Assembly (NCBI GenBank): GCA_045631445.1
Contig: JAZQUS010000067.1
Span: forward strand, 9,020 to 73,019
Reading direction: 5' to 3'
Length of the DNA: 64,000 nt
Source of the DNA: Eubacteriales bacterium
GTDB taxonomy: Bacteria; Bacillota; Clostridia; Oscillospirales; CAG-272
A program made the translations under genes and the position numbers. Under the pieces are notes generated by a model that was given only the letters and a program-made list of their open reading frames with translations, searched no databases and had not been told where the DNA came from. Shown piece after piece: positions 8,101 to 27,699 of the stretch. Each line of letters begins with the position of its first letter. The stretch's first letter is position 1.

Positions 8101-8310
8101 ATCGCAGACGGTGAATGGGATCCCGAAACAGACCCCATGCGTCCTTCATTCGAGGAAGAAAACAACAATACTCCCGTTGTTCCCAATCCTCCCGTTAATG
8201 ACAATACAAACGATAACAATAACACTCAAGAACCCGAGGAGCTTGGCTTCTTCGCAAGAATTATTCAGGCAATTATCCTCTTCTTCAAGAGATTGTTTGG
8301 CTTGGTATAA
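5161..8310 (+). CDS. surface multidomain GHL10 protein (1049 aa)
   Basis: Architecture: N-terminal signal/anchor (LVCLILSLVAVIGIGIFA), triple beta-module region, coiled coil, GHL10 domain, N/D/P-rich linker, C-terminal hydrophobic tail. The catalytic region carries ARAVWHRP, INLIFVETLYNGYS and GLNLDYIRYPVSN. The tail is FFARIIQAIILFFKRLFGLV. Confidence 0.75.
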   Translation: MKRKVLKISLVCLILSLVAVIGIGIFAIEGEYTRDITKYGLAVTANGQVITGVYSDPVDYWEVASSGTLNDYEIRYDTVNEVDSVIYTGFYPNTTTGRVGENIVEYVCEKQDKAYVVTKINESGDGTTYIPLNGFVFSVNKTVVSDFANIGDEVAITGEISIPTRAVESTSGKRIVVDATNATRSQPMVVYYDYQFGEKTGTNVFGTEMICEFNFEKNTFIVTGFRPFLSGDDSGSYIPDNGFVLSAYGEGYRALLAAGELFKKGDEVKMVGFDYVRFGGTVHGTFDHINPTKETNPSGMETATDEFPAFRGTDQTIIYKDGWDYKGSAGTGTNVYGFEAAVNANGIVVELGVNVSKIPEGGYVISGHGIGRDFIRSNVVLGATIVLDEVNKTYSVSTTLNSYYENLVTNVETVIDVAKSRIKQLYDVNVDVINEYIAKVEAELETLRVLKESIEEKLADPDLTEEERLALLMNYNNSQLKIEKLRQSILVSSAESKVVSARAVWHRPIEANYTEIKTNVEMYKKIGINLIFVETLYNGYSSFRSEVEEFPYHKNLAATYTDENGNVYNDYLSAFLACCKENGIEVHAWVENFYVGIDPQVTVLKMHPDWVMYNEDGTTVQRNEGGPYYFIDPANKEVQDTLIAYYNDLLAKNPELAGLNLDYIRYPVSNEVEDTGFTMAAMKGFYELLGKEFTANQLSDRTKMYNKFKQLFDKNYLLGGQAEADANYKQWVNYRMSVITEYVRRIKNEVKDANGVMLSTSVFASLTESTNSKKQDWRTWFLNGWIDLATPMAYYTDATDVNARVKDMILMAGNNCLYYTGIASSYSGLPAWQNKEHIEASYNAGANGYVIFCSTQIIGHEDVQNALMSGVNSKWAVLPHAAIEEVLTAMFESILDKADRLYIPAGGMTEENKAELEAIFAEILAMPHENAEDIYNIVKALQSLSKTDIKNYAKGYSRQRIIEQLNELADILDARISMQLIADGEWDPETDPMRPSFEEENNNTPVVPNPPVNDNTNDNNNTQEPEELGFFARIIQAIILFFKRLFGLV

Positions 8311-8328: not shown

Positions 8329-10467
8329 ATGAAGGGAGGGGTTGTTATCAAGTGTATAACAAAAATTCTTGTTGTATTTTTAGCCGTTGCTATTTTAGGA
8401 ACTACTTTCTTGTCCGCATCTGCTATACAGATGTTGAGTAATGAATCTTCTATGATAAAAAGTGCTAACGTTACTACATCCTCTCTTAATTCTACATATA
8501 ATAGTGCATCTAATAAGGTTAGTTCAGCTGTGAAATCTGCAGAAACTAAGCTTTCACAGCTGTATGACCTTGATAAAGAGCTTATTGATTCTTATATTTC
8601 ACAAGCTAAAAGTGAGATAAAGAGGATGGAAACTCTTAAAAGTAATATTTCGAATCTTCTTAATACAAGCCCCAACAGTGCTCAAATAGATACTTTGGTT
8701 GGGCAATTCAACGAAGCAAATGCGCGTGTTAATGAGCTTTGCACTCTCATTAATGTATCATTGATTGAAAGCAAGGTTGTTTCGGCAAGATCTATGTGGT
8801 ATCGCCCCTGCGAAAAAACATATGCCGAAATAAAAGCTAATGTTGAGATGTTTAAATCCATTGGTATTAATCTTATATTCGTTGAAACCTTTTATCATGG
8901 AATGAGTGCATTCAGAAGTGATATTAGTGATATTCCTTATCACACAAGTCTTGCTGGGTCCTATATCGACAACGAAAACAAAATAATGTATGAAGATTAT
9001 CTTTCTGCTTTTGTTGCTTGTTGCGTTGAAAATGGAATTGAAGTGCATGCTTGGGTTGAAAATTTCTACGTTGGAATTAATGCAAACACCAAAATCATTG
9101 TCGAGCATCCCGATTGGATTATGTATAACGATGACGGTACTATTACCCAACGTAAAGAGGGCGGGGCATACATCTTTATTGACCCTGCTAACAAGGATGT
9201 TCAAGATTTGCTTATTGATTACTATAATGAGTTATTCGAGAAGCATCCCGAGGTAAAGGGACTCAATCTTGATTACATTCGCTATCCTGTTTCTAACAAA
9301 ACCACGGATACCGGATTTGCGATTGGGGCAATGAAGGGCTTTTATGAGCTTCTTGGCAAAGAGTTTAATGAAGAACAACTTTCTGACCGAAAGAAGATGT
9401 ATAATAAGTTCAAGCAGTTGTTTGACAAAAATTATCTTTTGGGTGGACAAACCGAAGCCGATTCAAACTACAATAAATGGTGCGAATATCGAACTCAAGT
9501 TATATCTGATTTCGTTTACCGTATTAAAACCGAGGTAAAAGAAACAAACAATATTGTTCTTTCAACCGCCGTGTTTGCTTCGCTTAGCGAATCTATAAAT
9601 TCAAAAAAAGCGGATTGGCAAACTTGGTTTAAAGAGGGATGGATAGAGATAGCTACTCCTATGGCTTATTATTCAACTGCTTCTGCAGTTTTATCCAATG
9701 TGCAATCGATGATTTCGACTGGTGGAAATAAATGTCTTTATTATACGGGTATCGCATCCTCTTATAGTGGATTGCCTGCATATCAAAACAAGGAATTTAT
9801 TGAAGCTTCCTATAAAGCGGGTACTTGCGGATATGTAATATTCTCGGGTGCTCAAATCGTAGGACACAAGGATGTTCAAGACGTGCTTGCAAGCGGAGTA
9901 AATAATAAGTGTGCGGTTTTGCCACACGCTCCTATTGATGAGATACTTAAGGCGAGCTTTGATGATATAATTGATAAGGTCGATAGAATTTACGTTCCCT
10001 CAGGTGAAATGAGTAGCTCTAATAGGGAAGAACTTAAGACAAAATTAGATACTATTTTGCAGATGCCCTATTCCACTCAAGAGGAGATTGCGGAAATATA
10101 TTCCGTTCTTCAAGAATTGAGAGGAGCCTTACAGTCATATGCAACGGGATATTCCTTGCAAAGATTGACTGAAAACGTTGATTATCTTGCAAAAATTATC
10201 AATACAAGATCACTTATGCCCATTGTTGAAGAGGAAATACTTCCTCCTGATGACAACGGAACAAATGACAATGAGGGCGGTGAAACTGATAATGAGGAAG
10301 ATAAAACCGACGACACAACAAATAATGACGGTGTTAATGATGACAACGGCAAAAATGACGAGTCACAGACACAACCGCCTGTAGAAACTCCTGTAAAGAA
10401 AAGCTTTTTTGCTAAGCTTATTGAAGCAATAATGCTTTTCTTTAAAATGCTTTTGGGTTTGGCTTAA
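8329..10467 (+). CDS. surface GHL10 protein (712 aa), tandem paralog of 5161-8310
   Basis: N-terminal hydrophobic segment and coiled coil. The GHL10 domain has long runs identical to the upstream paralog (KMYNKFKQLFDKNYLLGGQ, NGIEVHAWVENFYVGI, CLYYTGIASSYSGLPA). An acidic D/N/T-rich linker precedes the tail FFAKLIEAIMLFFKMLLGLA. The exact start is uncertain because the RBS before 8329 is weak. Confidence 0.75.
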   Translation: MKGGVVIKCITKILVVFLAVAILGTTFLSASAIQMLSNESSMIKSANVTTSSLNSTYNSASNKVSSAVKSAETKLSQLYDLDKELIDSYISQAKSEIKRMETLKSNISNLLNTSPNSAQIDTLVGQFNEANARVNELCTLINVSLIESKVVSARSMWYRPCEKTYAEIKANVEMFKSIGINLIFVETFYHGMSAFRSDISDIPYHTSLAGSYIDNENKIMYEDYLSAFVACCVENGIEVHAWVENFYVGINANTKIIVEHPDWIMYNDDGTITQRKEGGAYIFIDPANKDVQDLLIDYYNELFEKHPEVKGLNLDYIRYPVSNKTTDTGFAIGAMKGFYELLGKEFNEEQLSDRKKMYNKFKQLFDKNYLLGGQTEADSNYNKWCEYRTQVISDFVYRIKTEVKETNNIVLSTAVFASLSESINSKKADWQTWFKEGWIEIATPMAYYSTASAVLSNVQSMISTGGNKCLYYTGIASSYSGLPAYQNKEFIEASYKAGTCGYVIFSGAQIVGHKDVQDVLASGVNNKCAVLPHAPIDEILKASFDDIIDKVDRIYVPSGEMSSSNREELKTKLDTILQMPYSTQEEIAEIYSVLQELRGALQSYATGYSLQRLTENVDYLAKIINTRSLMPIVEEEILPPDDNGTNDNEGGETDNEEDKTDDTTNNDGVNDDNGKNDESQTQPPVETPVKKSFFAKLIEAIMLFFKMLLGLA

Positions 10468-10542
10468 AACCGAAATTCAAATGATTTTCAGATGCTTTGC
10501 ATCTTAAAATAAAAAATTAATTAATACTTAGGAGGTATTACT

Positions 10543-13500
10543 ATGAAGATGTCAAAATTTTTGACAGCCATTGCGTTGATCCTTGTATTGATCGTTGGAT
10601 TAACGGCTTGTAATTTCCCTGGGGTAGAAACTCCCCCAACAACAACATCTACAACCACAACTCCTACGACTACTCCCAATCAGGGTGGTGATCCCACACC
10701 TGATCACGAATGTGAGAGCGTATGTCCTACTTGTGGCTTGTGCTTGAACGCAGAGTGTGCTGAAGCAATTTGCTCAGCTAAGTGTGAAGGACATCAGTCC
10801 ACTCCCACAGAATCCACACCCGTAATCACAGTTTCTCCTGAAAATATTGAAATGAATGCAGGTGAAGAAATTGATTTGATGATTGGTGTTACTGTTTTCG
10901 ATGAACTTGATGAAGAACCTAGACTCATCATCGAAGACGATGACGGTTTTGATGCAGATGTTGAAGGTACTTACACAATCACATACCTTGCTCAGAACAA
11001 GTTTGGCAACACAGCAACAGCTACAAGAACAATCGTAGTTAATAAGGCACTCTCCGCTCTTTCTCTTGAAGTTCAAAAGAATCTTCTTGGTGAATCTAAG
11101 TGGCAGGGAACAATCCTTAGCTTTAAGAATCACGAATATGTAGTTCTTAACGCAAGCGCAACTCTTGACAAGCAGAGCGGTGTATTCTACAATGCATCTT
11201 CTTCCGAAATCACAGTTACAATTTCTAACAGTGACTATGCAGTAGTTGCTATTATCACAGCTAATGGTGTAGTAATTGAAGGTCGTGACGGTGCAAACAA
11301 TAGACTTGTAAATGCATCTAATCCTGTTCGTACTTCAAGTACAGCAAAGCTTGGTGACATTAATAAGGTTGCTGACAACATGGTAATCCCCGCAGGCGGT
11401 TATGCTATCGTAGTTCAGTCCGGTTACGCAGGTACAGGCGTTGACTTTGACGGACGTGGCTTTATGAACTATAACGTAATTGGTACATACGGCAACGTAG
11501 TACGTCTTGTTTGGGCTGATACAGCTGAAGTTCTTACTCCTTACATTGACCAGGCTCCTGTTATTTCCGGTAACGATACAGAAATCGTTGCAGGTAACGG
11601 TTTTGAGCTTTCTACTGGCATTCTTGCAGGCGTAACAGCTAAGGACGATAACGGTACATTTGATCCTTCTGATGACGTAACAGTAGAAATTACTATTGCT
11701 GATGAAGGTGGATTTGATATTTCCCAAAACGGCGTTTACACAATTACTCTTTCTGCTACAGATGGAACACACACAACAACAGCAACTCGTAAGGTTGAAG
11801 TTACAACAAGTGCAGTTGAAGTTGTTGTTAACGGTAATGTTCATACAACAGTAGATAACCTTATCGCAGTAGATAAGGACCTTACAGTTCTTGGTAAATA
11901 CACATTCGTAATTTACACACCTGACTACAAGGGTGGTCTTAACTGGTCCAACGGTTGGGGTGAAGCATTCGTCATCAACCAGTATGGTGAAGTAATCCGT
12001 ATCTACGACGGTGCTAATGGTAAGTATTATGACCTTGAAAATCCTGCAGGTATCGTTGATGCATCTAAGTGCACAGCAGCAGGCTATTTGACAGAAGCAT
12101 TCAACTCTCGTCAGGCAGGTGAATACCTTCTCGTTGCTCCTAACGGTAACGGTAACGTTACAAGATCCTTCTTGCTTGCTAACCGTGTAATCGGTGCGAA
12201 GGTAGTTCTTCCCGGTATTGCATTTGCACACAAGTGCGAAAGCGTTTGCGTTCAGTGCGGACTTTGTCTTGATGCAGAATGCACAGAGGCAGCTTGTGCT
12301 GCAAAGTGCGAAGGTCACGTTCACAACTGTGAAGATATTTGTGAAGTATGTGGAAAATGCACATCTGAATGCGACAACGAAGTTTGCGCAGCTAAATGTG
12401 ACTGTGTAACAGTTGTTGTTAATGGTAAATCTCTTAAGATCCTTGCTGGAACAATCGCTATTGACGAAGCTAAGCCTTCTCTTGGTTCTTACAACTTTGT
12501 AGTTTATACATATGCTTTCAAGGCAGAGAACGAAACTCTTTCTTGGGGCAATGGCTGGTCACAGGCATTTATCCTTAACCAGTACGGTCAGGTAGTTCGT
12601 ATTTACGACGGCGTAAGTGGTGGTAAGTACTTCGATGCTGCTAACAGATCAGGTGTAGCAGGTGTTACTGCTGCAGGCGACACATTGAAAGATGCTTATG
12701 CATCTCTTTCCGAAGGCGAAACACTTATTCTTGGTGCTAACGGTGGTATGAACGGTAACGCAGGCCGTAGCTTCCTTGGTGGTGTTCGTGTAATTGGTGC
12801 TCTTGCAACAATTCCCGGTGTAACATTTGAAGCTCTCCCTGAGCACGCTTGCGAAAGCAAATGTGCAGATTGCGGTAAGTGTATGGATGCAACCTGCATC
12901 ATGCCCGATTGTCTTGCTCAGTGCGCTTGTCACAGATGCGAAAGCGTTTGTGCTAAGTGTAACGGATGCTTGGATCCCGCTTGTACAGAAAAGGCATGTG
13001 AAACAAAGTGCTCTTGCCACGACTGTGAAAGCCTTTGCGCTATCTGCGGCGGATGCAAGGATACAGAATGTACAAATGACGTATGCGCTAAGAAGTGCGT
13101 ATGCACAGACACAAGCGCAAACAAATATTTTGCTATAAACGGTACATTCTTTATGGCAGCTGAAGGCAAGTGGTTGTATAACACACAGTGTGGTAACACA
13201 ACTGAGCCCAAGGCACAGAACTACAGAATGATTATCTTTGATAGAAATTACAAGGGTACATTTACAACAAATAGCTACGGTGTAGCAGTTGTAGTTGACG
13301 GTAACGGCAAGCTCGTTAAGGGTTATGCTTGGGACGGTTACTACACAGCTGAAGGTAAAGCAGCTATCCACTATGCAGTAGGTGACTACGCAACAACAGC
13401 TTTTGCTGAGCTTAAGGCAGGCGAAGTTCTTATTATCTTTGCTAATGACGGTGTAAACGCAGCAGATTCTGCTCGTACATTCGGTAAGTCCCTTTGCGAT

Positions 13501-14163
13501 AACTGGGCAACAACAATGGGTAAGGATGTTGTATTGACAGGTTACACATTCAGCGTTCCTGCTCACGAATGTGATCACGTATGTCCCGCTTGTGGACTTT
13601 GCCTTGATGCAGAGTGCGCAGAAGAGGTTTGCGCTTCTAAGTGCCAGGGACACGCTCACGTTTGCGACAAGGTTTGTGCAACCTGCTTCGGTTGTAAGGA
13701 TGCAGCTTGTGCAGAAGAAGTTTGCGCAACAAAGTGCGGATGCTTGGCAATGACAATCGGCTCTAAGGCATATACAGCAACATCAGGCAAATGGGCATAT
13801 AACCAAGAAATCACAACATCTACTGCTGCTAACAAAGCAATTTGGATTTTTGACAAGAATTACACAGGTAATTTCTCCACAAACGGTTACGGTGTAGCAG
13901 TAGTTCTTGACGCTGCAGGCAAGGTAATAAGAGTTTATGACGGCGCAAATGTTGGTTATTGGTTGCCCGCAGGTAAGCAGGCATCTGCTCATTTCAATGC
14001 AAATACATTTGCAACAGTAGCTTGGTCCGAACTTCAGGAAGGTGAAACACTCGTTGTATTGCCCAACGGTCCTGATGGAAACAAAGCTCGTCAGATTGGT
14101 CTTGATTCCCGTTATCTCTTCAATCAGAAGATGAATCTTGTTAGCCTTACTTATAACAAATAA
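10543..14163 (+). CDS. Cys-rich modular surface lipoprotein (1206 aa)
   Basis: AGGAGG RBS and signal peptide with lipobox LTAC (Cys23), then a T/P-rich linker. Eight copies of a 7-Cys unit lie at 10705-10794, 12229-12405, 12844-13104 and 13564-13743. Two Ig-like (DUF5011-like) segments and about five beta modules (GWGEAFVINQYGEVIRIYDG type) are also present. Confidence 0.8.
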   Translation: MKMSKFLTAIALILVLIVGLTACNFPGVETPPTTTSTTTTPTTTPNQGGDPTPDHECESVCPTCGLCLNAECAEAICSAKCEGHQSTPTESTPVITVSPENIEMNAGEEIDLMIGVTVFDELDEEPRLIIEDDDGFDADVEGTYTITYLAQNKFGNTATATRTIVVNKALSALSLEVQKNLLGESKWQGTILSFKNHEYVVLNASATLDKQSGVFYNASSSEITVTISNSDYAVVAIITANGVVIEGRDGANNRLVNASNPVRTSSTAKLGDINKVADNMVIPAGGYAIVVQSGYAGTGVDFDGRGFMNYNVIGTYGNVVRLVWADTAEVLTPYIDQAPVISGNDTEIVAGNGFELSTGILAGVTAKDDNGTFDPSDDVTVEITIADEGGFDISQNGVYTITLSATDGTHTTTATRKVEVTTSAVEVVVNGNVHTTVDNLIAVDKDLTVLGKYTFVIYTPDYKGGLNWSNGWGEAFVINQYGEVIRIYDGANGKYYDLENPAGIVDASKCTAAGYLTEAFNSRQAGEYLLVAPNGNGNVTRSFLLANRVIGAKVVLPGIAFAHKCESVCVQCGLCLDAECTEAACAAKCEGHVHNCEDICEVCGKCTSECDNEVCAAKCDCVTVVVNGKSLKILAGTIAIDEAKPSLGSYNFVVYTYAFKAENETLSWGNGWSQAFILNQYGQVVRIYDGVSGGKYFDAANRSGVAGVTAAGDTLKDAYASLSEGETLILGANGGMNGNAGRSFLGGVRVIGALATIPGVTFEALPEHACESKCADCGKCMDATCIMPDCLAQCACHRCESVCAKCNGCLDPACTEKACETKCSCHDCESLCAICGGCKDTECTNDVCAKKCVCTDTSANKYFAINGTFFMAAEGKWLYNTQCGNTTEPKAQNYRMIIFDRNYKGTFTTNSYGVAVVVDGNGKLVKGYAWDGYYTAEGKAAIHYAVGDYATTAFAELKAGEVLIIFANDGVNAADSARTFGKSLCDNWATTMGKDVVLTGYTFSVPAHECDHVCPACGLCLDAECAEEVCASKCQGHAHVCDKVCATCFGCKDAACAEEVCATKCGCLAMTIGSKAYTATSGKWAYNQEITTSTAANKAIWIFDKNYTGNFSTNGYGVAVVLDAAGKVIRVYDGANVGYWLPAGKQASAHFNANTFATVAWSELQEGETLVVLPNGPDGNKARQIGLDSRYLFNQKMNLVSLTYNK

Positions 14164-14197: not shown

Positions 14198-14221
14198 TCC
14201 CCATCGCCTTCGGGCGATGGG
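14198..14221 (+). other. GC-rich stem-loop inside the locus (no U tail)
   Basis: CCCCATCGCC-TTCG-GGCGATGGGG, a 10-bp stem with a TTCG loop, lying between the lipoprotein gene and the phosphodiester glycosidase gene. Confidence 0.4.
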
Positions 14222-14241
14222 GCAACAGAGAAGAGAAAAAA

Positions 14242-15843
14242 ATGAAAAAAATATTTACTTCTTTAACAGTTGTAGTAGCATTAGTTCTTTTAATGACTAT
14301 TACAGTTTCCGCTGCTTTTTCTTCAAGCGTGCTTTCTAATCCCTCTTATTCTAAAAATATTGATGGTATTATTTACAAGGAAGCAACAGTTTCTGAGAGC
14401 GGAACACAAAAGATTTTCTACGGTGAGTATAATGCCACAACCGAAGACGCCGAATATGAATGGGTAATTCATAGCATTAGAGATGGTTCAGATACAACAC
14501 TTTCAAATGTTATGAAAATTGCTAAGGACTATGAAGCAAAAACAGGTCGCAAGGTAATGCTCGCAGTAAACGGTGACTATTTCTATAATACAGGCGCGAA
14601 CGTAGATTCCTATGTAAATAACGGTATCGTTATTTCTAAAGGAAATATGGCAAATAAAAATTGCATTGGCTTTGATAATAATGGAAAAGTTGTGATTGGC
14701 AGAATGACTGAAACAGCAATTCGCCTTGTTACTTATGATAAGAACGGTAATTCACAATTTTTCAAGGTTGATAAATTTAATGAACAACCCGCAGAAGGTG
14801 AGATAGCTATTTACAATGCTGCAGGTACATATACAGTTACTAATGCAGGTGCAATGGTGGTTAAAACAGAAGCAACTAACATGACTTCATATCCTCTTTT
14901 GGGTACCGACTCCACCTTGACAGCAACCGGTGTTCAAGAAACAAAGGAATTTACTCTTAAGAGTGGACAGTTTGCAGTTGTTTACACATCTGCTCATAAC
15001 GATGAGTTTGGTAAGCACGCTTACGGTGAAAAGGTTGACCTTGTTGAAGTTCCTGCAGGTGAATTTGCAGGATGCACTTGGGTAGTTGGTGGTTATGATG
15101 CTCTTGTAGACAACTTCGTTGCTAACACAAACTGCCATACAGATAATAGCGGTAATGCCGCAGCTCCTCGTACATTCCTTGGATTTAAGGAAGACGGCAC
15201 AGGCTTTGTTTGTGTAGTTGACGGACGCGGTGCAGGCGGTTCTACAGGTATCACAGTAAATCAGGAAGCACAGCTTGCAAAGGTTCTTGGTGCACAGTTT
15301 GCTCTTGAGCTTGACGGTGGTGGATCTTCCACTATGGTTGTTCGTATCAATGATACTCTAACACTTCGCAACGCTCCTTCCGATGGCTCTATGAGAGCAG
15401 TATCTAATGCCGTGTTGCTTGTTGAAAAGCCCAAGGCAGAGGAATCACACGAGCATAGCTTCGTTGAAGGTAAGTGCGAGTGTGGTGAGACCGACCCCAA
15501 TTATAATTCAGGTTCAAATGAAACTCACGAGCACAAGTGGAGTGCTCCAACATGTACAAGTCCTCGTACATGTGAATGTGGTGAAACACTTGGTGCGGCT
15601 CTTGGACATAAATACTTTGAGGGTGTTTGCACAAGATGTCAAGCAGAGGATCCCGAATACGTAGCTCCTCACGAGCACAGCTTCGTTGAAGGCAAGTGCG
15701 AGTGTGGGGAAGAGGATCCTAATTATCAAGTGGAAGATAATACCAACCCACAGCAGCCCGCTGGAAACCAAAATTCCTTTGCTGCGTGGATTCAAGCTAT
15801 TATCGATGCAATTATTAAGTTTTTTATGGAATTATTTTCCTAA
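14242..15843 (+). CDS. phosphodiester glycosidase family protein (NAGPA/DUF2233-like) with Cys/His repeats and C-terminal hydrophobic tail
   Basis: Signal peptide (LTVVVALVLLMTITVSA). AVNGDYF and ALELDGGGSSTMVV motifs are typical of PF09992. The C-terminal third has HEHSFVEGKCECGE(T/E)DPNY twice, plus related CxxC segments. The tail is FAAWIQAIIDAIIKFFMELFS. Confidence 0.7.
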   Translation: MKKIFTSLTVVVALVLLMTITVSAAFSSSVLSNPSYSKNIDGIIYKEATVSESGTQKIFYGEYNATTEDAEYEWVIHSIRDGSDTTLSNVMKIAKDYEAKTGRKVMLAVNGDYFYNTGANVDSYVNNGIVISKGNMANKNCIGFDNNGKVVIGRMTETAIRLVTYDKNGNSQFFKVDKFNEQPAEGEIAIYNAAGTYTVTNAGAMVVKTEATNMTSYPLLGTDSTLTATGVQETKEFTLKSGQFAVVYTSAHNDEFGKHAYGEKVDLVEVPAGEFAGCTWVVGGYDALVDNFVANTNCHTDNSGNAAAPRTFLGFKEDGTGFVCVVDGRGAGGSTGITVNQEAQLAKVLGAQFALELDGGGSSTMVVRINDTLTLRNAPSDGSMRAVSNAVLLVEKPKAEESHEHSFVEGKCECGETDPNYNSGSNETHEHKWSAPTCTSPRTCECGETLGAALGHKYFEGVCTRCQAEDPEYVAPHEHSFVEGKCECGEEDPNYQVEDNTNPQQPAGNQNSFAAWIQAIIDAIIKFFMELFS

Positions 15844-26637: not shown

Positions 26638-26659
26638 GACTATCGGAGTTTGCGTTTTT

Positions 26660-26698
26660 GTGCGGTTACTTCGGTAGCCGCACTTTTTGTTTTTTTTA
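26660..26698 (+). terminator. intrinsic terminator inside the leader, directly upstream of the RBS
   Basis: GTGCGGTTAC-TTCG-GTAGCCGCAC stem-loop followed by TTTTTGTTTTTTTT. AAGGAG and the ATG (26716) follow. Confidence 0.75.
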
Positions 26699-26715
26699 GA
26701 AAGGAGAAAAGGATT

Positions 26716-27699
26716 ATGAACAAAAAAGTGTTAATTGGTATTATAGCAGCGGTTGTTGCTATAGGTGCAGTTGTTGGAGGTGTGTTCTTGTTCAAGCACG
26801 AGCACGTTGAAGCGGTTGATGTGGCAGTAGCACCCACTTGCGAAGAAACAGGTCTTACAGAAGGTAAGCACTGCTCGGATTGTGGCGAGGTTTTGGTGGC
26901 GCAAGAGGTAGTGGCTGCTACAGGTCATACCGAAGTTGTTGATGCGGCAGTAGCTCCTACTTGCGAAGAAACGGGACTCACAGAGGGCAAGCATTGTTCG
27001 GCATGTAACAAAGTACTTGTAGCGCAGAAGACGGTAGCTGCGCTTGGACACAAGGAAGTAGTTGACAAGGCAGTTGCAGCAACCTGTGAGAAGACAGGAC
27101 TTACAGAAGGCAAGCATTGTTCGGCATGTAACAAAGTACTTGTAGCGCAGAAGACGGTAGCTGCGCTTGGACACAAGGAAGTAGTTGACAAGGCAGTTGC
27201 AGCAACCTGTGAGAAGACAGGACTTACGGAAGGCAAGCATTGTTCGGTATGTAACAAAGTACTTGTAGCACAGGAAACAGTAGAGGCTACGGGACATGAC
27301 TATGATGTTGAAAGCTTAGAAAATGAGGGTAAAGTAGGAAGCAAGGTTACATATAAGTGTAACAATTGCGAAGACACATATGATGATGTTATTGATGAAA
27401 TCAAAATATCGGTACGCAACACAAGTACATCATCTGCTACAATGAATGGATATGGTTCGTGGACTAAATATTATTCTGCTAATGCTTCAGGCGGATATGG
27501 TAAATTAAAGTATAAATTTGAAGTATATGTGAGTAAGACATCCAAAAATCCAGTTTCAAATTTGACGGAAGATTTCTCATCTAAAAATTCTTATGGTATA
27601 TCCTATAGAGGTTACGAGAATTATATTAGCGGTTGGATTTTGAGAGTAACTGTTAAGGATGAAGCAGGAAACGAATGTGTATACGACTATGAGTTCTAA
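26716..27699 (+). CDS. membrane-anchored surface protein with four 41-aa Cys/His repeats
   Basis: AAGGAG RBS and N-terminal TM ([22 protein letters not shown]). Four units follow, of the form [38 protein letters not shown], then a ~130-aa beta-rich C-terminal domain. Confidence 0.8.
26806..27297 (+). repeat. 4 x 123-bp in-frame tandem repeat (units at 26806, 26929, 27052, 27175)
   Basis: Period measured from recurring GGCAAGCATTGTTCGG at 26986, 27109 and 27232. Units 3 and 4 are nearly identical at DNA level. Units 1 and 2 are more diverged. Confidence 0.9.

Follow-up and report, generated by a model that had tools for sequence, protein, structure and literature searches.

We analysed a stretch of 64,000 nucleotides (nt) from an Eubacteriales bacterium (GTDB lineage Bacteria; Bacillota; Clostridia; Oscillospirales; CAG-272; NCBI GenBank assembly GCA_045631445.1, contig JAZQUS010000067.1, positions 9,020 to 73,019 of the forward strand; hereafter the window), and within it a gene for a lipoprotein that carries eight copies of a short His- and Cys-rich unit. 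This His/Cys unit is an unnamed domain, for which neither sequence nor fold gave a match in Pfam, NCBIfam or the PDB, and it is a real mobile mini-domain of general purpose that occurs most often directly after a lipobox. The open reading frame (ORF) starts with an ATG at 10543, ends at 14163 on the forward strand and encodes 1206 amino acids (aa), 65 of them Cys and 17 His. On inspection, its N-terminus, MKMSKFLTAIALILVLIVGLTAC, shows the positively charged n-region, the hydrophobic h-region and the lipobox ([LVI][ASTVI][GAS]C about 15–35 residues from the start, here LTAC with Cys23) of a Sec/SPII signal peptide. An initial annotation, made from the sequence without database searches, had described a 1206-aa lipoprotein with this lipobox, a Thr/Pro-rich linker and units in clusters of 1+2+3+2. 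The translation bears this description out, and the nucleotide coordinates given for the clusters are correct (Table 1).

The strict pattern H-x-C-[ED]-x2-C-x2-C-x2-C-x4-C-x4-C-x3-C matches the protein seven times, with starts at aa 55, 563, 768, 797, 826, 1008 and 1039, where the expectation by chance for the seven-Cys spacing is ~1.6e-6 ((65/1206)^7 × ~1180 start positions). The eighth unit, at aa 594, has a one-residue deletion that turns one C-x4-C into C-x3-C, so that the eight strict copies first reported are seven exact ones and a variant. All eight units end in a ninth ligand-type residue, reached through C-x-C in five and C-x2-H in three, a general rule that the initial annotation did not state. 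No other reading frame of the window carries the unit. On average the eight units are 53% identical in aa and 60% in nt, and the same codon is used at only 57% of the identical residues; the eight-unit architecture is also found in independent metagenome-assembled genomes (MAGs) at 70–91% identity. Given the divergent nucleotide sequence and codon choice, the units are old duplications, and, since independent MAGs share the architecture, they are not an assembly artefact; the codon argument had already been made in the initial annotation, and the recurrence now stands beside it.

Searches for a named relative of the unit were made with the whole protein, 117 single units and 45 three-unit arrays against Pfam-A, NCBIfam and PHROGs, and no unit family rose above noise. 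Among the 117 units and 45 arrays, no Pfam or NCBIfam family recurred in more than five members and none reached threshold. PDB searches by sequence and profile with the protein and the unit gave only noise, the best matches of the unit profile (E 0.97–1.7; ZNF57, TFIIS; C2H2 fingers) covering the CxxCGKC knuckle only, and Foldseek found no PDB match with E < 5 for a three-unit model. Similarity to the zinc ribbon/knuckle superfamily was thus seen neither in sequence nor in fold, and no metallothionein model in Pfam or NCBIfam matched. For the Fer4 clan, the lipoprotein had no match and 5 of the 117 units had weak ones (E ≥ 0.045); weak PDB matches to ferredoxin-like chains were also seen (E 0.013–0.9). 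The initial annotation had not recognised the unit as a named domain, and Pfam-A, NCBIfam, PHROGs, PDB profiles and Foldseek agree. The literature searched holds no description of the unit, of the ~140-aa module with which it alternates in this protein or of the locus. As far as these databases and publications go, a nine-ligand, 29-residue extracellular version, its generic use as a linker in Gram-positive lipoproteins and its restriction to uncultured gut Clostridia are undescribed; the general idea of Cys/His-rich metal beads is already known.

A scan with a unit profile, which the initial annotation had proposed for genomes, was run on 1.84 billion representative proteins. The unit is a genuine domain family: the 35-column profile (A4) matched 559 of these proteins at E ≤ 1e-3, of which 236 passed E ≤ 1e-10 and 69 passed E ≤ 1e-30, and as many as 15 copies occur in one protein. 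An exact degenerate-DNA pattern found at least 119 stretches in species-representative genomes, nearly all in MAGs of uncultured gut Clostridia; among the matches listed, the carriers include Christensenellaceae, Oscillospiraceae, Acutalibacteraceae and Eubacteriales, and the animals they come from are ruminants, rabbit, chicken and humans. One unit locus (L006) lies in a record titled Corallococcus sp.; its N-terminus resembles those of Clostridia lipoproteins, which makes binning contamination the likely reason for this placement.

Of the 333 unit-bearing proteins whose N-terminus is intact, 284 (85%) have a lipobox-like start, and in these 284 the first unit lies at most 15 aa from the lipid-carrying Cys in 145 and at most 40 aa from it in 199. 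The domains fused to the unit are diverse and comprise the carbohydrate-binding modules CBM6, CBM26, CBM35 and CBM77, pectate lyase, a PL4 CBM-like domain, GH3, GHL10, GDSL esterase and DUF4886, as well as Endonuclease_1, Exo_endo_phos (EEP), CotH, SLH, LRR_5 and Flg_new. The initial annotation had coupled the units to the ~140-aa modules, a link that the survey did not support: among the matches listed, most of the 127 unit-bearing ORFs in reference-genome loci lack the module, and it was present in only 2 of 145 further unit-bearing cluster representatives.

Within the homologous family, 389 unique copies yield the consensus H(-1)-x-C1-E-S-x-C5-x2-C8-G-K-C11-x-D-x2-C16-x4-C21-x2-K-C25, followed by x-C27 or G-H28. 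In this set, in which the seven Cys were preset by the search pattern, His(-1) is conserved at 99%, E2 at 84%, G9 at 79%, D13 at 82% (with Asn in another 15%) and K24 at 95%. A second alignment, based on a profile and not presupposing the Cys, holds 1088 unique full-length units from 395 proteins. In 1071 of them all eight core ligands are kept; each of the 17 others differs by one substitution (for example His to Tyr or Asp, Cys to Asp, Cys to His), and a loss of two Cys together is seen in none of the 1088. The ninth ligand was tallied in 1115 unique units: His28 alone is present in 717, Cys27 alone in 227, both in 89 and neither in 50, and 32 have a different His or Cys within five residues. 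The units with both are tandems with a 29-residue period, in which the His28 of one unit is at the same time the initial His of the following one. Seven Cys and two His, with an odd number of Cys, is therefore the commonest form (717 of 1115).

The initial annotation had made its proposal depend on a predicted ordered fold, and AlphaFold2 (AF2) does predict one, with a predicted local distance difference test (pLDDT) of 69–86, two short beta-bridges and one helical turn, in a model that contains no metal. Where the units flank a module, pLDDT is 82–86 for unit 3 and 69–84 for unit 4; the array of units 4–6 has a mean of 77.4.

Table 1 Features of the lipoprotein gene and its two neighbours, in window positions.
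Feature	Position	Strand	Basis or remark
GHL10-family protein, upstream gene of the conserved locus	8329..10467	+	PF02638, E 6e-15
Shine-Dalgarno sequence AGGAGG	10530..10535	+	Read from sequence; 7 nt ahead of the ATG
Sec/SPII signal peptide, aa 1–23, lipobox L-T-A-C, Cys23 lipid-modified	10543..10611	+	No twin-arginine motif
Thr/Pro-rich linker, aa 24–54	10612..10704	+	Translation
His/Cys unit 1, aa 55–84, C-x2-H end	10705..10794	+	Motif, repeat comparison
Ig-like domain 1, ~aa 90–167, PF16403 Bact_surface_Ig-like	10810..11043	+	Pfam; boundaries approximate
Domain X, aa 168–342, divergent fifth ~140-aa module	11044..11568	+	hhalign
Ig-like domain 2, ~aa 343–424	11569..11814	+	Second PF16403 stretch; boundaries approximate
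Module A, aa 425–562	11815..12228	+	Self-homology, profile (domain E 9e-53)
His/Cys units 2+3, aa 563–621; unit 3 is the C-x3-C variant	12229..12405	+	Motif
Module B, aa 622–767	12406..12843	+	Self-homology, profile, AF2
His/Cys units 4–6, aa 768–854, tandem, 29-aa period	12844..13104	+	Motif, AF2
Module C, aa 855–1007	13105..13563	+	Self-homology, profile
His/Cys units 7+8, aa 1008–1067	13564..13743	+	Motif
Module D, aa 1068–1206, plus stop codon	13744..14163	+	Self-homology, profile
NAGPA-type phosphodiester glycosidase, downstream gene of the conserved locus	14242..15843	+	PF09992, E 1e-24

Besides the units, the lipoprotein is built of Ig-like domains and ~140-aa modules. The two Ig-like segments of the initial annotation, the one named domain type that the family searches turned up in the protein, correspond to matches to PF16403 Bact_surface_Ig-like (48.8 bits against a gathering cutoff of 27, E 7.2e-13, in two stretches, the best at aa 115–166); the region of the second also has sub-threshold Pfam matches to Big_3 (aa 345–414) and InlK_D3. 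Modules A to D are homologous to one another, with 47% identity between A and B, 42% between C and D and 31% between A and D (E 5e-16). The module is present two to eight times per protein in all 120 homologues listed, with 600 matches in total, and it is a second unannotated domain family in the lipoprotein. An AF2 model of unit, module and unit (aa 594–796; alignment A1 of 88 diverse copies) reached a mean pLDDT of 90.7 and a predicted template modelling score (pTM) of 0.86, the module region having a mixed alpha/beta fold at a pLDDT of ~95. A PDB profile search with the module found nothing; with its model, the best Foldseek E values were 0.088 (PDB) and 0.037 (BFVD), with a TM-score of at most 0.32; and any one Pfam family matched 3 of the 88 copies at most, always weakly. 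An origin of the module from the NAGPA/DUF2233 phosphodiester glycosidase fold was considered and rejected, the hhalign probability against the NAGPA proteins of the locus (A6) being 1.7% for A1 and 1.0% for A5. A profile search found no module in the other genes of the window.

Domain X, not part of the initial description, is a fifth and divergent module (hhalign of A5 against A1, probability 93.9%, E 1.5e-7) and the most conserved part of the family, with a mean column identity of 69% over 26 homologues. Its motifs EGRDG, PAGG and D-x-DGR(GF), with E79, R81, D82, D134, D136 and R138, are invariant among homologues that are 53–87% identical in the domain. A Tyr, an Asp and an Arg hardly vary among the 88 module copies, and in alignment they fall on the invariant RDG and DGR of domain X. 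Domain X could supply the central function of the family, which might even be catalysis. Two long antisense ORFs also lie inside the gene, at 11335–12324 (minus strand, 329 aa) and 12649–13659 (minus strand, 336 aa); because they overlap a coding ORF with many conserved homologues, they are probably shadow ORFs of its Cys/Ala/Thr-rich strand.

At least 185 homologous lipoproteins were found, all unnamed, and a search with the alignment of domain X placed the family in at least 32 species-level genomes, essentially all of gut Clostridia. One family locus (L142) lies in a record titled Akkermansia muciniphila. The lipoprotein gene has a fixed place in a conserved gene order, which comprises GH38 alpha-mannosidase, NanE, DUF4127, two to three GHL10 genes, the lipoprotein, NAGPA, a solute-binding lipoprotein, two ABC permeases, a ROK kinase and an FAD oxidoreductase. 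This order, spanned by positions 51–27699 of the window and seen also in loci L123 and L124, is kept in close relatives and in unit-free homologues at 42–43% identity; in this window only, further genes follow, for a NagA-like amidohydrolase, a second ROK-like protein, an aldose epimerase and a mannose-6-P isomerase. The gene thus lies inside a glycan-utilisation locus, near glycosidases and a sugar importer; no substrate of the locus is described in the literature searched. The most economical reading of this setting is that the lipoprotein would be a surface glycan-capturing protein for a mannose/amino-sugar-(phosphate) polymer. The conserved synteny with glycosidase and sugar-catabolism genes also makes it plausible that the modules bind glycan.

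Some further features of the locus were noted. Its three GHL10 paralogues and DUF4127 are functionally uncharacterised. Two of the GHL10 proteins (GHL10b and GHL10c) and NAGPA, all three secreted, end, after an Asn/Asp/Thr/Pro-rich linker, in the same hydrophobic/amphipathic tail (GFFARIIQAIILFFKRLFGLV, SFFAKLIEAIMLFFKMLLGLA and SFAAWIQAIIDAIIKFFMELFS; window 8239–8307, 10396–10464 and 15775–15840), which matched none of the families searched and could be a membrane anchor or sorting signal of the locus. The 78-nt gap between the lipoprotein and NAGPA genes contains a GC-rich hairpin, its 10-bp stem perfectly paired around a TTCG loop (CCCCATCGCC-TTCG-GGCGATGGGG, window 14199–14222). As a T-run follows this hairpin on the minus strand only, it may act on the coding strand as an RNA stabiliser or partial terminator rather than as a canonical terminator.

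The distribution of the units among homologues bears on what they do. Their copy number varies from 0 to 12 among homologues of otherwise the same architecture. The 120 homologues have 480 junctions between modules: at 230 the two modules abut, and at 151 they are separated by one to three units. The modules therefore do not need the units. Six orthologues (P0100, P0083, P0077, P0055, P0058 and P0115) have no seven-Cys unit at all, and the same slots, after the lipobox and between modules, are filled by another His/Cys mini-repeat with four ligands (examples DPCADGHDFVDGKCADCGEADPDF and HTHSFVEGKCECGETDPNY). Its pattern is C/H-x-H...C-x1-2-C-G, with a composition of Cys3His or His2Cys2. The same four-ligand mini-repeat makes up the C-terminal region of the downstream NAGPA protein (aa ~403–497; window 15448–15732), where it matches the orthologue slots and occurs three times (HEHSFVEGKCECGETDPNY, the longer HEHKWSAPTCTSPRTCECGE...GHKYFEGVCTRCQAEDPEY, and HEHSFVEGKCECGEEDPNY) and where Pfam has no domain. 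Conversely, NAGPA orthologues elsewhere carry the seven-Cys unit in place of the mini-repeat (e.g., the L091 and L105 ORFs). That two unrelated Cys/His mini-domains take equivalent positions argues that the slot would require a compact stable bead and not a specific activity.

Variable copy number, unit-free junctions and replacement by mini-repeats in the same slots together make a role of the unit as a spacer between domains well supported on comparative grounds. The initial annotation had proposed spacers between glycan-binding modules, of which the spacer part stands, given the 230 unit-free and 151 unit-bearing junctions and the mini-repeat swap, and the specific partnership of unit and module is not supported. 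The preference for the position after the lipobox would fit a stalk on which domains are raised above the membrane and carried across the wall. The same genome has yet another extracellular His/Cys mini-repeat, of a third type (H, C, C-x2-C), in a protein encoded at 26650–27699 (forward strand), which combines a transmembrane segment at its N-terminus with a tandem array of four ~37-aa repeats opening with GH and closing with VLVAQ. Pfam gave only weak EGF_LMN_ATRN and zf-Vps39_C matches for this protein, and a similar repeat is found in P0164.

Units and modules might instead form one composite repeat, in which each unit cluster is a lid, hinge or co-binding site of the next module. The initial annotation had every cluster ahead of a ~140-aa module; clusters 2–4 do directly precede one, and the high pTM (0.86) of the unit–module–unit model would suit a joint structure. 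However, what follows unit 1 is an Ig-like domain, units are absent from 230 junctions and from whole orthologues, and the majority of unit-bearing proteins have no module, so that the composite is largely refuted by the architecture survey and strikes us as highly improbable. An alternative of another kind takes the units for metallothionein-like surface buffers, with the capture or detoxification of Zn, Cu or Cd as the selected function. Nine thiolate or imidazole ligands in ~29 residues (24–28% Cys) give a density near that of the metallothionein beta-domain, and a protein may hold up to 15 units. Unlike metallothioneins, which have no match among the families searched, the unit has highly conserved E2, S3, G9, D13 and K24 and is predicted to be ordered; it sits in fixed slots after the lipobox and between domains, is exchanged for simple four-ligand knuckles, and has hydrolases and CBMs, not metal transporters, as partners. 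We consider a buffering function quite unlikely.

The chemistry that holds the unit together is a related question. Binding of a metal, most simply Zn2+, is favoured here over disulfides or Fe-S clusters, on account of the odd Cys count of the commonest form, the invariant His, the exchange of Cys and His at the last ligand, the single Asp and His replacements without paired loss of Cys, the Sec export and the strictly anaerobic hosts in a reducing gut. Disulfide-knotted mini-domains, rigid beads of the EGF or knottin kind, would agree with the extracellular location, with the strict Cys spacing usual in disulfide-rich domains and with the even Cys number (eight) of the five units of this lipoprotein that end in C-x-C. 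Such knots would, however, leave one unpaired thiol in each of the 717 of 1115 units that end in x2-H without Cys27, and they account neither for the 99% conserved His(-1) nor for a last ligand that alternates between Cys and His. None of the 1088 unique units shows a paired Cys loss, the gut Clostridia that carry them live in reducing habitats, and the His2Cys2 or Cys3His repeats in equivalent slots of orthologues are inexplicable by disulfides; we hold this alternative to be unlikely. Fe-S clusters or rubredoxin-type iron, which would make the units an extracellular electron conduit, are suggested by the likeness of C-x2-C-x2-C to ferredoxin motifs and by the weak Fer4 (5 of 117 units, best E 0.045) and ferredoxin-like PDB matches (E 0.013–0.9). 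Every one of these matches is below threshold, and the spacing is C-x2-C-x2-C-x4-C without Cys-Pro where ferredoxins have CxxCxxCxxxCP. With a Sec/SPII signal that lacks a twin-arginine translocation (Tat) motif, a cofactor put together in the cytoplasm could not be exported; the domains fused to the unit are binding modules and enzymes that degrade glycans or nucleic acids; and the locus has no cytochrome or redox partner. For its spacing, sub-threshold matches and Sec export signal the Fe-S reading was rejected, and it appears scarcely credible.

The explanation towards which we lean, with some confidence, is a Sec-exported, lipid-anchored surface protein that is a fixed part of a mannose/amino-sugar locus and combines metal-stabilised mobile spacer units with glycan-capturing modules. 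Most likely, the two Ig-like domains and five modules (X and A to D) would capture a polymeric glycan at the cell surface and make it available to the glycosidases and the ABC importer encoded nearby. The eight His/Cys units would have no part in this capture; they belong to a self-contained mobile mini-domain of ~29 aa, which the host lineage inserts after the lipobox and between the domains of many unrelated secreted proteins. Most likely, each unit would fold around bound metal: its nine His/Cys ligands (the invariant His, seven Cys, then Cys27 or His28) would probably coordinate two or three Zn2+ and give a small rigid bead whose stability is independent of redox conditions. Strings of such beads would keep neighbouring domains at a distance from one another and let them reach from the membrane across the cell wall. 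The data establish the gene, its architecture, the modularity and distribution of the unit, the want of a named relative and the synteny; the binding of metal, the mechanics of spacing and the binding of glycan by the modules are inferences.

Several observations sit uneasily with this explanation. Two classical four-ligand sites would not account for nine ligands, and 50 of the 1115 units have no ninth ligand. The pTM of the three-unit AF2 array is only 0.43, which leaves the relative orientation of the units undefined and rigidity between them unpredicted. The module resembles no CBM family, PDB structure or Pfam model and may serve catalysis or contact between proteins instead of binding, and the invariant acidic and basic residues of domain X could equally mark an enzyme.

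Nine ligands are familiar from trinuclear clusters: the metallothionein beta-domain binds three metals on nine Cys (M3Cys9) and pre-SET/CXC domains hold Zn3Cys9 clusters, and such a number suits a trinuclear cluster with three bridging thiolates. By analogy, the unit might be a new extracellular Zn3 bridged-thiolate domain, a redox-proof substitute for disulfide-rich domains from which strictly anaerobic gut Clostridia would make rigid stalks on their surface enzymes, and the module a new glycan-binding fold for an uncharacterised mannose/amino-sugar-phosphate polymer; we put this combination forward tentatively, as rather doubtful.

Exported proteins of Firmicutes are generally poor in Cys, as reported for aerobic members (Daniels et al. 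2009, PMC2823432), so neither the 65 Cys of this surface protein nor the reuse of a Cys-rich element across hundreds of secreted proteins was to be expected. If the units are metal beads, they show how anaerobes make rigid extracellular linkers without disulfides, and they may be of use in protein engineering as compact, modular spacers. Names for the unit and for the ~140-aa module would help to annotate the surface proteins of gut Clostridia, which are abundant but uncultured. The gene content of the locus (GH38, three GHL10, DUF4127, NAGPA, NanE, NagA and mannose-6-P isomerase) suggests as its substrate an uncharacterised glycan of dietary, microbial or host origin. No principle is overturned unless the polynuclear-cluster reading is true.

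Known systems resemble the lipoprotein and its unit in part. Like the surface glycan-binding lipoproteins of polysaccharide utilisation loci and multi-CBM proteins, the lipoprotein is lipid-anchored, multi-repeat and non-catalytic in appearance, and it is encoded between glycosidases and an ABC importer in conserved synteny; it differs from them in that its module matches no CBM family, Pfam model or PDB fold. With zinc knuckles and ribbons (CPxCG-type; TFIIS ribbon, C2H2 fingers) the unit shares the C-x2-C-G-K-C knuckle, small size, and beta-bridges with a helical turn; the interchange of His and Cys as ligands and a stability independent of redox conditions would be common to both. The unit departs from them in having nine ligands in 29 residues instead of four, in being extracellular and tandem, and in serving as a linker in bacterial lipoproteins. 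Metallothionein beta-domains and pre-SET clusters are alike in ligand number (nine in ~30 residues), which is an analogy only, whereas the unit has no sequence similarity to them, one or two His among its ligands, conserved residues that are not ligands and a backbone predicted to be ordered. Counterparts in position are the four-ligand mini-repeats H-x-H-S-F-V-E-G-K-C-E-C-G-E-x-D-P-N-Y and D-P-C-x-D-G-H-x-F-x2-G-x-C-x2-C-G. While they lack sequence similarity to the unit and their four ligands in ~22–25 residues are enough for one metal site, they occupy the same slots over the same taxonomic range, and they have the ligand composition of a single zinc knuckle.

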